Shown here in pieces: positions 31,770 through 37,343 of a stretch of DNA of 64,000 bases. Source of the DNA: Escherichia coli (GTDB lineage: Bacteria; Pseudomonadota; Gammaproteobacteria; Enterobacterales; Enterobacteriaceae); the NCBI RefSeq assembly GCF_024700885.2, contig NZ_CP117016.1; one strand, written 5' to 3'. Below the pieces are notes generated by a model. That model worked only from the letters and a program-made list of their open reading frames with translations. It made no database searches and had not been told where the DNA came from. Within the stretch, counting starts at the first letter, position 1. Each line of letters opens with the position of its first letter. The position numbers and the translations under genes are program-made.

Positions 31770-32047
31770 AAGATTTAACACTCAAATTTGCAGACAGGGC
31801 CGACTTTTCGGCCTTTATGGAGAGTATTGGCTATTATGATGACGAGTCGATGCAGGATGATATTCTTATTGACGTGATAGGTAACGTGTACAAAGAAACC
31901 GGAGAACTGACTGAAGATGGCGAACCGGTATGTGTTAAGGAAGACGGATATTTTGTAAACGTGCGCATCATTAATGATGTGAAAACACCGTCAATATTCG
32001 ATGAATACGTGGTTGCTGTTGAGCATCAACTTCGTGGCTGGATGTGA
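31766..32047 (+). CDS. Hypothetical acidic protein in tail-fibre module
   Basis: 93-aa ORF, start overlaps stf stop, AT-rich. Confidence 0.3.
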   Translation: MKDLTLKFADRADFSAFMESIGYYDDESMQDDILIDVIGNVYKETGELTEDGEPVCVKEDGYFVNVRIINDVKTPSIFDEYVVAVEHQLRGWM

Positions 32048-33166: not shown

Positions 33167-34537
33167 CTATGATATTCCTGAGATATCCTCTTCAAGCTCT
33201 TTTACTGATTTCGCAATTTTAAATTTAAACTTCCTCTCTATTTCACTATTGCTAAGTTTTTTTTCCTTCTCTTTACCTATCCACATAGAAACAAGTTCTC
33301 GTTTCTGAGATATATGTAAATTATCAAAGTTAGGTATGTATTTAAAAGTCTCCGCTCTACCTCTGCGGAGTTCATAGAAAGTTTTAATCAAAGACTTTGG
33401 TTTTATTTCTGATGAAAGGCCGAATCGGTGGATAAGATTATTGATAGTATGATTAACAGAGCGAAGTTGAGCTGTTGAGGTTATTTGTGAGAAGTACGAT
33501 ACCCATCCCAATCGTTTACCTTCAAACACACATCCCGTAATTCTGAGATTTAGTTTCCACTGACAATATGCAACAGCTCGTTCTTTATCACGCTTACTTT
33601 TAGCTTGTAGTAGAGCGTGCCTGTATGCAGTAAAAATCCTTGCTAAAGATGACTCAAATCTAAGAATGCTCTCATGTTTTATCAATAATTCTCGATTTTC
33701 TATGTGGTATCCCAAAAAGTTAAAACTTTCATCCAAGCTGCCTACTTTGGATTTTGAGTTCTCTTCATTTAATGGATGTGGGTTTAAATTTAATGATTGA
33801 AGCTTATCAATGATATGAGAAGCTATTTTTGTTGCTTGATATTTTGGTGTTAAAATAAGAATGTCATCAACGTATCGCATGTACCATATGTCATGCATTT
33901 TATTGATTTCATCATCAAAATTAGATAGTGATATTTCAGCTAAAATGTTTGATATCGCTAATCCCTGAGGTACCCCTCTGGTATTATTCGGGATACCTTT
34001 GCTTCCTGTTGTTCCACTTACAGTAGGCACGATTAATGATGATGTTATTAACTGTCTAATTTCTTTTTTTCTAATTTTATTTTTTATTGTATTAATTATC
34101 AATTTATGTTCAATTGAAGGATAGAAACTTTTAAGATCTATTTTTGCATATTCAGCATAAAGACTGCTGTTTAATGCTTCTTTCAATGAGTCAATTACTG
34201 TATGTGGTAGTTTTAATCTGGAGTTAGGATATATTTCCGTAAGGCATTCACAGAGAGTTCTAAGAGTAATTCTGTCCCTAGCAGTTGGTATGGAAATCTG
34301 TCTGGGTGTAGAGTTAGCGCCTTTAGATATTAATTTTTCTTTATATGCTGTAAATTTGTAATTGCCAGAGTTAACCTTTTCAAAAATGAAAGCGATCTCA
34401 TTTTTTATTGTCAAATCAAGTTTTGATGGGCGAATCCGATCTATGCCAATCGCTCCTGATTCTTTGATTTTTTCAGTGTATACTTTTAGAAGGTTTTTTT
34501 TCGAGAATGACTTTTTAAAAATTCTGCTTGCAGTCAT
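33167..34537 (-). CDS. Reverse transcriptase (defence-associated type, unclassified)
   Basis: Ordered RT motifs: RQISIPTARDRITLRTL, KIDLKSFYPSIEH, GVPQGLAISNILAEISLS, YMRYVDDILIL, FNFLGYHI; ~30% GC; alternative TTG start at 34543. Confidence 0.8.
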   Translation of the reverse strand: MTASRIFKKSFSKKNLLKVYTEKIKESGAIGIDRIRPSKLDLTIKNEIAFIFEKVNSGNYKFTAYKEKLISKGANSTPRQISIPTARDRITLRTLCECLTEIYPNSRLKLPHTVIDSLKEALNSSLYAEYAKIDLKSFYPSIEHKLIINTIKNKIRKKEIRQLITSSLIVPTVSGTTGSKGIPNNTRGVPQGLAISNILAEISLSNFDDEINKMHDIWYMRYVDDILILTPKYQATKIASHIIDKLQSLNLNPHPLNEENSKSKVGSLDESFNFLGYHIENRELLIKHESILRFESSLARIFTAYRHALLQAKSKRDKERAVAYCQWKLNLRITGCVFEGKRLGWVSYFSQITSTAQLRSVNHTINNLIHRFGLSSEIKPKSLIKTFYELRRGRAETFKYIPNFDNLHISQKRELVSMWIGKEKEKKLSNSEIERKFKFKIAKSVKELEEDISGIS

Positions 34538-35066
34538 AGTCAATCCAAAGATATATTAATGGGAGTATATAAAGGGCGGCAGTAGTAAATATTCGAAGTA
34601 ATATCCATAAAATAACAATTATTTTTTCTTTTTGTGTGGGGATCCTCGTCGTAAGTCCAACTTGAGTTACCCTTGAAATTTTATCATCTATGTCACGGTG
34701 ATTCTCAACCTCATTGAGCAAATTAAAATATTTTTCTTTCTGTTCAAGAGTTAACTGTTGACTGGTGGTAATGTCAAAATAGAGTCGCTGTAGTGCAATA
34801 TAATTCCTTCTCATGGCTATTGCTCGACCACGAAAATCTAGGTTAGATACGATCAGCGAAATACCCAGTAGGGCCACCGAAAGTATTGCCGCAACGATAT
34901 CTGTGTTATCTCCTAGAACTTTTGGAAATCGCAACGTTACAATTGAAAGTACCGCACTCAATATAGCATACCAAACGAGGATAAATTGAGAGTGCTTTTC
35001 AAGCCATTCTAGTCGATGGTGCGCTTGGATACGGGCTTTATATGTAAACCAAATATTGTCATGCAT
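34515..35066 (-). CDS. Small multi-TM membrane protein, candidate effector partner of RT
   Basis: 183 aa; hydrophobic helices FILVWYAILSAVLSIVTL, IVAAILSVALLGISLIVSNL, IIVILWILLRIFTTAALYILPLIYLWI; 3' end overlaps RT start; RBS AAGGA. Confidence 0.6.
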   Translation of the reverse strand: MHDNIWFTYKARIQAHHRLEWLEKHSQFILVWYAILSAVLSIVTLRFPKVLGDNTDIVAAILSVALLGISLIVSNLDFRGRAIAMRRNYIALQRLYFDITTSQQLTLEQKEKYFNLLNEVENHRDIDDKISRVTQVGLTTRIPTQKEKIIVILWILLRIFTTAALYILPLIYLWIDYDCKQNF

Positions 35067-35288
35067 AAAAGATCCTTTTTAAAAGCGGAAGGGGCAGGAT
35101 ATATTGGAATCATTGAACATCCTGCCCGGCAGGATCAGTGAGCATAAGCTCAACAGTAAAATATTACTGTTCATTATCAGAGCCGCCCTTGCATGCACAA
35201 GAGGAAAAACCTGCCCCATCCTTTTGAATTATTACAATTTAATGATCTTAAAGTCAATACAAGTGAATGGTGTCCAGAGATGATGAAC
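35067..35288 (-). promoter_or_regulatory. Structured leader upstream of membrane-protein/RT operon
   Basis: Three copies of GGGGCAGG/CCTGCCCC in alternating orientation; hairpin ending ~25 nt before start codon. Confidence 0.3.
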
Positions 35289-35537
35289 TTAATGAACAAA
35301 CCACTCGTCAGCAGACTCCCAGGTATCTTTCAGAGTTTCCTGAACAAAAGTTTTAGCTGAATCTTTATCGGCGGTGCGCGTAACAGAAAGGCCATCGTTG
35401 CTGGTGGCTTTTACGATCACCTCTACATCGTCATAACGCTTACTGATGCGTCGAGTTAATTCTTCCTTTAACGCATCCACAGCACCGCTTGGCATTTTAG
35501 TCATTTTCTCTTTAGCTATGCAGATCTCAATACGCAT
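35289..35537 (-). CDS. DinI-like protein
   Basis: 82 aa; MRIEI...AKEK...LPAGA-DAL--EL-RRI...[10 protein letters not shown] pattern of the DinI family. Confidence 0.75.
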
Positions 35538-35550
35538 AAAAATCCCTCTA

Positions 35551-35598
35551 CACTGTGTTTGTATACAGTGTTATTTTTAACTGTATGAATAAACAGTG
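35551..35598 (-). promoter_or_regulatory. Two tandem LexA (SOS) boxes in dinI-like promoter
   Basis: CACTGTgtttgtatACAGTG (35551-35570) and AACTGTatgaataaACAGTG (35579-35598), both CTGT-N8-ACAG, 14-61 nt upstream of the start codon. Confidence 0.6.
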
Positions 35599-35617
35599 TC
35601 AATAGAACAAAGATTGC

Positions 35618-35740
35618 TGCATGTACAAATGTTCTTTGGCTACAAATACACCTACTGATCATGTTCTGCTATGCTCTGATACCTCCAAAATGTACAATCA
35701 GCGGCATGAATTTTTCTTTGTACATATGATTGTACATAAT
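35618..35740. repeat. TGTACA hexamer array in phage-derived prfC upstream region
   Basis: TGTACA at 35622, 35691, 35719, 35731; last two as direct repeat TTGTACATA separated by 3 nt. Confidence 0.4.
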
Positions 35741-35756
35741 TAAAGAGACAACAATT

Positions 35757-35830
35757 ATGACAAGCCTTTTGGCCGCAGAGGTAGCGAAAAGAAGAACCTT
35801 TGCAATTATTTCTCACCCGGACGCCGGTAA
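35757..35830. other. Inferred attR / prophage-chromosome junction within 5' end of prfC
   Basis: prfC N-terminus reads [15 protein letters not shown], differing from the canonical RF3 N-terminus as I recall it, then converges on conserved sequence. Confidence 0.4.
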
Positions 35831-37343
35831 GACTACCATCACCGAGAAGGTGCTGCTGTTCGGACAGGCCATTCAGACCGCCGGTACAGTAAAAGGCCGT
35901 GGTTCCAACCAGCACGCTAAGTCGGACTGGATGGAGATGGAAAAGCAGCGTGGGATCTCCATTACTACTTCTGTGATGCAGTTTCCGTATCACGATTGCC
36001 TGGTTAACCTGCTCGACACCCCGGGGCACGAAGACTTCTCGGAAGATACCTATCGTACCCTGACGGCGGTGGACTGCTGCCTGATGGTTATCGACGCTGC
36101 AAAAGGTGTTGAAGATCGTACCCGTAAGCTGATGGAAGTTACCCGTCTGCGCGACACGCCGATCCTCACCTTTATGAACAAACTTGACCGTGATATCCGC
36201 GACCCGATGGAGCTGCTCGATGAAGTTGAGAACGAGCTGAAAATCGGCTGCGCACCGATCACCTGGCCGATTGGCTGCGGCAAGCTGTTTAAAGGCGTTT
36301 ACCACCTTTATAAAGATGAAACCTATCTCTATCAGAGCGGTAAAGGCCACACGATTCAGGAAGTCCGCATTGTCAAAGGGCTGAATAACCCGGATCTCGA
36401 CGCTGCGGTTGGTGAAGATCTGGCACAGCAGCTACGTGACGAACTGGAACTGGTGAAAGGCGCGTCTAACGAGTTCGACAAAGAGCTGTTCCTTGCGGGC
36501 GAAATCACTCCGGTATTCTTCGGTACTGCGCTGGGTAACTTCGGCGTTGATCATATGCTGGATGGCCTGGTGGAGTGGGCCCCTGCGCCGATGCCGCGTC
36601 AGACTGATACCCGTACCGTAGAGGCGAGCGAAGACAAATTTACCGGCTTCGTATTTAAAATTCAGGCCAACATGGACCCGAAACACCGCGACCGCGTGGC
36701 GTTTATGCGCGTGGTATCCGGTAAATATGAAAAAGGCATGAAGCTGCGCCAGGTGCGCACTGCGAAAGATGTGGTGATCTCCGACGCGCTGACCTTTATG
36801 GCGGGTGACCGTTCGCACGTTGAAGAAGCGTATCCTGGCGATATCCTTGGTCTGCACAACCACGGCACCATTCAGATCGGCGACACCTTTACCCAGGGTG
36901 AGATGATGAAGTTCACCGGTATTCCGAACTTCGCACCAGAACTGTTCCGTCGTATCCGCCTGAAAGATCCGCTGAAGCAAAAACAGCTACTCAAAGGGCT
37001 GGTACAGCTTTCCGAAGAGGGCGCGGTGCAGGTGTTCCGTCCGATCTCCAACAACGATCTGATCGTTGGTGCAGTTGGTGTGCTGCAGTTTGATGTGGTG
37101 GTAGCGCGTCTGAAGAGCGAATACAACGTTGAAGCAGTGTATGAGTCAGTCAACGTTGCCACTGCCCGCTGGGTAGAATGTGCGGACGCGAAGAAATTCG
37201 AAGAGTTCAAGCGTAAGAACGAAAGCCAACTGGCGCTTGATGGCGGCGATAACCTCGCTTACATCGCTACCAGCATGGTCAACCTGCGCCTGGCGCAGGA
37301 ACGTTATCCGGACGTTCAGTTCCACCAGACCCGCGAGCATTAA
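35757..37343 (+). CDS. prfC: Peptide chain release factor 3 (RF3), 5' end phage-supplied
   Basis: 528 aa; GTPase G1 motif [17 protein letters not shown]; full-length RF3. Confidence 0.9.

Follow-up and report, generated by a model that had tools for sequence, protein, structure and literature searches.

The DNA analyzed here is a 64-kb stretch from Escherichia coli (hereafter referred to as the window), in which prophage DNA runs into prfC, the gene for release factor 3. Directly upstream of prfC there are four copies of the hexamer TGTACA, located at 35622-35627, 35691-35696, 35719-35724, and 35731-35736 (sites 1 to 4, respectively), and these positions agree exactly with those given in a first-pass annotation of the window. 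Sites 3 and 4 sit in a 9-mer direct repeat, TTGTACATA, at 35718-35726 and 35730-35738, whereby the two units are separated by a 3-nt TGA spacer and the second one stops 19 nt upstream of the prfC ATG at 35757, an arrangement that the annotation had likewise described correctly. The features of the locus are as follows:

35622-35627, plus strand: site 1, candidate for a distal site of the arm type, position -195 relative to the core end
35691-35696, minus strand: site 2, candidate for an additional site of the arm type that is probably inverted, position -126 relative to the core end
35719-35740, plus strand: putative P-arm tandem module with sites 3 and 4, TGTACAtatgatTGTACAtaat, spaced by 12 bp, with the first base (G) of the two GTACA motifs at -98 and -86, counted from the core end
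35757-35818, plus strand: phage-borne substitute for the prfC 5' end, encoding 21 residues
35757-37343, plus strand: hybrid prfC (release factor 3), rebuilt at attR, according to the open reading frame listing and the RefSeq annotation of identical genomes
35804-35810, plus strand: candidate core-type integrase site C, AATTATT, which forms an inverted repeat with AATAATT in attP
35805-35818, plus strand: crossover core ATTATTTCTCACCC

The crossover core was defined by comparison of the attB site of K-12, the attP sites of phages cdtI and 2H10, the attL site of IHE3034, and the attR site of the window, and is the sole block that is identical in attB, attP, attL, and attR. It is present as a single copy in the window, without a second core, and neither an integrase signature nor a native prfC 5' end was found within the 64 kb. 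From the four-way att comparison, the window can be assigned as carrying attR, and the element is a lambdoid prophage of the cdtI/2H10 type that has inserted into the 5' end of prfC. The distance between attR and the attL/int end, which lies to its left, amounts to ~44 kb in IHE3034. The comparison of the four att sites also revealed that integration at the prfC 5' end goes along with a swap of the 5' coding end: the native 5' end of prfC in K-12 has a different sequence, and the phage version is present in the attP of the free phages cdtI and 2H10. Analogous prfC 5' mimics, differing in length, occur in the diverged attPs that are described below, and a truncated prfC was found 198-237 bp upstream of int in ~30 relatives. 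Around the crossover, the cdtI attP shows the sequence AATTATT-N9-AATAATT, an inverted repeat with 7/7 matches. The diverged attP L165 has AATCATC-N9-GATGATT, which is again a 7/7 inverted match with different bases in both arms, whereas the inverted-repeat match around the crossover is poorer in other lineages. AATTATT and AATAATT are thus listed as candidate core-type integrase sites.

Many E. coli chromosomes contain the region with 100% identity, among them those of IHE3034, CE10, and FDAARGOS_536, and it is 98-99% identical to the free phages cdtI, 2H10, and PhiR63_1 as well as to many Stx-converting phages. The P arm of the window adjoins prfC in 699 of 5426 complete E. coli genomes (~13%), Stx- and Cdt-converting prophages among them, which makes prfC a very commonly used integration site. 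Since this P arm shows an identity of at least 98.8% across 33 phage records and, with few exceptions, of at least 95% across 700 E. coli records, close relatives cannot separate the sites from their flanks. In E. coli FY10 (L242), IS26 cuts a prophage remnant at a position corresponding to ~35658, leaving sites 2 to 4 and the hybrid prfC.

Several further features were observed in the window. Just inside attR, the prophage cargo (33167-35066, minus strand) is a reverse transcriptase gene of the PADLOC class RT_UG17 (E 2e-158), which overlaps a gene for a SLATT_5/RT-associated SLATT two-transmembrane protein, and by sequence this pair looks like a DRT-type anti-phage defence system. The corresponding place is occupied by cdtABC in phage cdtI and by an invertase in 2H10. 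A DinI-like gene (35289-35537, minus strand) is accompanied by exact CTGT-N8-ACAG LexA boxes at 35553-35568 and 35581-35596, which fall between and behind the two elements of a promoter-like minus-strand sequence (TTGACA/AAAAAT); overall, there are 4 such boxes in the window versus 0.57 expected. Far to the left, an open reading frame (1230-2048) contains, at 1488-1643, tandem repeats of ~21-23 nt (GGTGCAG..ATTCAC) and, behind them, three copies of GAACCAGTCA. They resemble iterons and possibly represent a lambdoid replication origin in an O-like gene. An Rfam search of 35000-36200 gave no match at E values up to 1.

Within the complete window TGTACA occurs 11 times, compared to 10.4 expected copies, and 4 of these 11 are located inside 115 bp. 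As the window-wide count is at chance level, the signal lies in the clustering. The local mononucleotide expectation is 0.04 copies per 115 bp. In 300 dinucleotide-preserving shuffles of the whole window, the maximum never exceeded two copies per 115 bp, and when the 220-bp intergenic segment was shuffled 20,000 times, four copies were reached only twice, whereby the latter shuffles retained the dinucleotides that the TGTACA sites themselves contribute. However, when all 4096 hexamers were scanned, there were eight others with a maximum of at least four copies per 115 bp somewhere in the window, and the TGTACA cluster taken alone is therefore only suggestive. It becomes convincing because there is a matching cluster on the other attP arm and because of the comparative data.

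This second cluster was found in the attP of cdtI and 2H10 and in the attL of IHE3034, where four more TGTACA hexamers are located 165-216 bp to the right of the core. They lie directly upstream of int, and the last one ends 15 bp before the int ATG (tcTGTACAtgtgctTGTACAtaaTGTACAaaac...tttTGTACAaggtgagtaATG). The first-pass annotation had proposed to look for the same 9-mer near the other prophage end, and it is indeed present there, at the attL/P' arm, together with three further TGTACA copies. In cdtI, all eight TGTACA hexamers within 7.5 kb fall in attP, four on each side of the core. The tandem modules of the P and P' arms form a 35-nt direct repeat with 77% identity. Both attP arms therefore carry a repeated motif that is unrelated to the core. 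A search for the IHF consensus WATCAANNNNTTR with at most one mismatch yielded no hit within attP and thus no bending component for a lambda-like intasome, which counts against the arm-site reading; a 20-nt imperfect direct repeat (D2) in the P' arm is a mere candidate for an accessory site of this kind.

The integrase encoded next to the P' arm has a length of 405 aa and matches Arm-DNA-bind_3 (formerly DUF4102; E 1.9e-16), Phage_int_M, and Phage_integrase, all above the Pfam cut-offs. It thus combines an N-terminal arm-binding domain with core-binding and catalytic domains. Its N-terminal part is similar in sequence to arm-type binding domains of known structure, namely 3JTZ/3RMP (E 1.4e-6, residues 1-80) and 3JU0 (E 2.6e-4, residues 1-96), and NCBIfam provided no specific family name. 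According to Smyshlyaev et al. (PMC8138268), the cdtI phage integrase and IntSXT constitute one prfC-targeting cluster of the IntSXT subgroup, for which a DUF4102 N-terminal domain is described (PMC8138268; PMC5812530), and the integrase analyzed here has the DUF4102/Arm-DNA-bind_3 domain that is expected of this "SXT cluster". We refer to it as a P4-type integrase and a member of the prfC-targeting SXT cluster, with the clustering with IntSXT being taken from PMC8138268.

A scan with one genome per species led to the identification of 66 integrase relatives with 33-99% identity, which provided 60 usable loci. In these 60 loci GTACA/TGTAC reaches a density of 23.5 per kb within the 100 bp that precede int versus 0.92 per kb elsewhere, and the arrangement GTACA-N7-GTACA is found upstream of int in 41 of the 60 loci, covering many genera, versus 4 occurrences in the other 380 kb. 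The constant part is GTACA and not the palindrome, as exemplified by Pseudomonas (TGTACA..CGTACA..TGTACG) and Pantoea (AGTACA). Gamma-, Beta-, and Alphaproteobacteria share the layout, and in each case it adjoins a related integrase. Most relatives adjoin a truncated prfC. The GTACA pair is also present without prfC upstream, namely in Morganella, Providencia, Pantoea gossypiicola, Arsenophonus, Acinetobacter johnsonii and Acinetobacter guillouiae, and in the Moraxella phage Mcat17. At the sequence level, the motif tracks the integrase and not prfC. In a sister clade with 40-47% identity, comprising Salmonella phage SPN3UB, Kluyvera, Citrobacter, Edwardsiella, Franconibacter, Erwinia, and Serratia PL17, GTACA is replaced by GTCCA in the same 12-bp-spaced layout, which in SPN3UB is present on both arms. 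The arm-binding domain of this clade shows the fixed substitutions S29W, K/R37A, Q41F, R52K, and D54T. The motif and, as described below, its core spacing are kept together with the integrase, and the motif shifts together with the arm-binding domain.

Some relatives drew attention for other reasons. In an Acinetobacter johnsonii locus (L122, 2768-3001) and in L167 (~200-484) the integrase is located beside a truncated or element-borne lepA-like 5' end (KNIRNFSIIAHI). Because some relatives adjoin such a lepA-like 5' end instead of prfC, the integrase clade appears to target P-loop-coding 5' ends of paralogous translational GTPase genes. In a Photobacterium sp. locus (L148, 2950-2975) a frameshifted int is preceded by TGTATAC-N5-TGTATGC with 12-bp spacing, and this pair possibly represents a third version of the motif within the common architecture. 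The same locus was dropped as a stand-in for SXT, as its int is frameshifted and no prfC is nearby. Contigs labelled as metagenome-assembled genomes (MAGs) of Sporosarcina psychrophila (L088) and Ignatzschineria (L147) encode an E. coli-type integrase with 95-98% identity, in the case of L088 together with an E. coli attL, and are probably contaminations of the MAGs.

For the geometry of the attachment site, diverged attPs were obtained from a re-ordered integrase alignment and from a DNA-pattern scan. The scan of viral contigs with the cdtI-led integrase alignment had returned only E. coli copies with at least 97% identity, and scans of viral contigs with single diverged integrases gave nothing useful. 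The P-arm pair is located exactly at -98/-86 from the core end in the window/cdtI, in L165, and in L166. By contrast, the start codon of the prfC mimic lies at -61 in the window/cdtI, at -52 in L165, and at -73 in L166, so that, depending on the lineage, 25, 34, or 13 nt separate the pair from the ATG of the mimic. When viral contigs were scanned for GTACA-N7-GTACA followed by ATCATCTCNCAYCC, with a gap of 53-83 permitted, there were six hits on five contigs, all with gaps of 68-69. Two lineages were gained by this pattern scan, namely L246, which is an attR and belongs to a GC-rich host, and L248, so that the pair is found at -98/-86 (±1) in five independent attP/attR lineages (window/cdtI, L165, L166/L247, L246, and L248). 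The P' arm contains a rigid three-site module with site A at 0, site B at +12, and an inverted site C at ~+50. The distance from the core end to P' site A is 134-136 bp in ~19 loci from many genera, 145 bp in Methylobacter-like loci, 154-157 bp in Acinetobacter and one Enterobacterales MAG, and 164-169 bp in E. coli, Trabulsiella, Serratia, and Symbiopectobacterium. These distance classes, which rest on few independent evolutionary shifts (~3), step by ~10.5 bp, i.e., about one helical turn, and the distance from the core to the int ATG varies independently between 198 and 237 bp. Such a core-fixed and helically quantised spacing fits the needs of an intasome and not those of a promoter or operator.

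The four P-arm sites differ in how well they are conserved. Sites 3 and 4 obtain the top motif-model scores in the window, whereby these scores are partly circular as the model was built on GTACA-anchored sites. Site 2 is a perfect 11-nt inverted copy of site 4 (ATGTACAATCA / TGATTGTACAT) and is invariant among E. coli copies, but it scores poorly in the motif model (0.4 forward, 4.8 reverse) and is missing from L165. Site 1 scores 12.6 bits, with only 4 hits of at least 12 bits in the window, and its position is likewise unoccupied in L165, which is the sole diverged attP that reaches far enough to cover sites 1 and 2. In one E. coli strain site 1 reads TATACA, and in another strain the hexamer is kept and the flanks are altered. 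An isolated match of at least 12 bits was observed at 31887-31892 in the cargo region, ~3.9 kb to the left of attR. In E. coli and Trabulsiella there is an additional inverted site in the P' arm. Because of this extra P' site and the unoccupied positions of sites 1 and 2 in L165, the enterobacterial lineage seems to have added sites on both arms. From these comparisons, the conserved and ancestral part of the array is the tandem pair at 35719/35731, and the sites at 35622 and 35691 would be lineage-specific additions or, less likely, coincidental.

Taken together, the most probable interpretation, to which we assign a probability of roughly 0.78, is that the tyrosine integrase encoded by the prophage itself binds the TGTACA hexamers as arm-type sites with its N-terminal arm-binding domain. 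The first-pass annotation had already suggested integrase sites of the attR P arm, within roughly 20-180 bp of the att core. The distance has to be corrected, since the sites lie 74-183 bp upstream of the core start (35805). The suggestion itself is backed by the arm-binding domain, by a motif that follows the integrase, and by a position that is fixed to the core and not to start codons. The sequence evidence argues strongly for arm sites at 35719 and 35731, and more weakly at 35622 and 35691, because the latter two are not conserved outside E. coli-type phages. The phage attP holds the 14-bp core within the phage-borne copy of the prfC 5' end and four GTACA-core sites per arm. After integration, the P arm with its four sites comes to lie at attR in front of the hybrid prfC, and the P' arm is located at attL in front of int, outside the window. 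In the proposed mechanism, which follows that of lambda Int, the C-terminal domains of each Int protomer would contact a core site and its N-terminal domain would contact an arm site. Bridging of arm and core via bent DNA would yield the intasome for integration (attP x attB), and the addition of an excisionase would allow excision (attL x attR). We infer that Int is the binder, and not another protein encoded by the element; the orientation of the palindromic sites and the assignment of individual sites to integration or excision are to be read in the same way.

The alternative that fares best is that an excisionase (recombination directionality factor) or another recombination protein encoded by the element binds the repeats. 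The motif stays directly beside int even though the neighbouring genes differ, it occurs on both arms and in inverted copies as known for Int arm sites, and the change from GTACA to GTCCA coincides with the fixed substitutions in the arm-binding domain of the integrase, all of which makes an excisionase as the binder improbable. It has to be considered, though, that such proteins also bind tandem direct repeats in att arms, as is the case for TorI of KplE1, whose sites are located in attL and overlap the int promoter (PMC2951348), and that 2H10 encodes a small HTH protein that is annotated as an excisionase. A protein co-evolving with int would also follow the element and would yield some of the same conservation.

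It could also be that the hexamers are operator or promoter elements, either for the hybrid prfC (sites 3 and 4) or for the divergent dinI-like gene (site 1), as the first-pass annotation had offered as a second possibility. Sites 3 and 4 are located 19-38 nt upstream of the prfC ATG, site 4 holds a -10-like CATAAT, and site 1 is ~20 bp away from the -35 region of the dinI-like promoter. However, a scan with the sigma-70 consensus detected no plus-strand promoter for the hybrid prfC, and the candidates found manually are weak (-35 TTTTCT / -10 CATAAT). The pair keeps its distance to the core while that to the mimic ATG changes from lineage to lineage, and in L166 a transcript from site B would start past the ATG. 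Furthermore, the motif is also present in non-prfC elements and at the int end of attP, and the dinI-like gene is already served by two LexA boxes. The sites are thus neither fixed to a promoter or start codon nor limited to the context of one gene, and a primary function as operators is not supported and seems quite unlikely. A bound Int could nevertheless incidentally affect transcription, either of prfC or, as described for KplE1 and P4 (PMC2951348), of int.

For a host DNA-binding protein that recognizes TGTACA, it could be argued that the hexamer is palindromic like many sites of dimeric regulators. However, most variants conserve GTACA only and not the palindrome, and the layout is kept across Gamma-, Beta-, and Alphaproteobacteria, always beside this integrase. 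Since the GTCCA sister clade inhabits the same enterobacterial hosts, a host factor is very unlikely. Finally, an accidental cluster in AT-rich DNA, for which the eight other clustering hexamers could be put forward, can practically be dismissed in view of the shuffling results, the second cluster on the opposite attP arm, and the conservation in distant relatives; it is refuted for sites 3 and 4, and is possible for site 2 (35691) or site 1 (35622) when each is taken singly.

The arrangement resembles that of phage lambda, where the arm sites of Int (P1, P2 / P'1-P'3) also represent a motif unrelated to the core that is present on both attP arms, partly in tandem and partly inverted. In lambda these sites are read by the N-terminal domain of a heterobivalent tyrosine integrase, and integration leaves the P arm at attR and the P' arm at attL beside int. 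The lambda motif is, however, C/AAGTCACTAT and is recognized by an arm-binding domain of another family, whereas here the motif has a GTACA core with the consensus ~T-G-T-GTACA-T-A and the domain is Arm-DNA-bind_3/DUF4102. Neither IHF nor Xis sites were identified here. Also unlike in lambda, the core here is located within a protein-coding 5' end that is replaced by the phage. In this latter respect the prophage is like the SXT/R391 integrative and conjugative elements (ICEs), where IntSXT targets the prfC 5' end and a new prfC 5' end is supplied, with the difference that SXT/R391 is a conjugative element and not a lambdoid prophage. P4 and KplE1 (IntS) have P4-type integrases, too, with P' arm sites between the core and the int start, and the GenBank record of P4 annotates an "attP arm sequence repeat", but both integrate into tRNA genes and use other motifs (the KplE1 sites share TAAA). 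The attL of such elements thereby extends over the int promoter, and int is subject to negative autoregulation (PMC2951348). The integrases of the Yersinia HPI (3JTZ/3RMP) and of the HAI7 island (3JU0) belong by sequence to the same N-terminal domain family; they are distant and their DNA motifs differ. Neither a description of arm sites or of these repeats for the prfC-targeting cluster, nor data on the binding, footprints, or recombination activity of this integrase or of any member of its cluster, were found in the literature searched, most of it outside subscription journals.

Arm-type sites are a textbook category, and the finding introduces no new principle. Their importance results from the fact that arm-type sites decide between integration and excision by a tyrosine integrase. 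The GTACA core, the 12-bp-spaced pair at -98/-86, and the rigid A/B/C module of the P' arm provide a signature for delimiting elements of this kind, and the motif predicts which bases would have to be mutated in order to lock or release prophages. The change between GTACA and GTCCA, with five candidate residues, presents a natural specificity swap for DNA reading by the DUF4102 domain, of an integrase that according to the literature shares a cluster with the SXT/R391 resistance ICEs. In a broader and rather speculative interpretation, which we consider doubtful, the GTACA pair and its rigid geometry would be a family-wide "arm code" of a large clade of phages, islands, and, per literature, SXT/R391 ICEs that rewrite prfC or, in some members, lepA 5' ends. 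As the start codon supplied by the element always follows closely downstream of the conserved P-arm pair, Int occupancy at attR could, in this interpretation, also throttle the expression of the hybrid release factor 3. If true, such throttling would couple the translation termination of the host to the state of the element.
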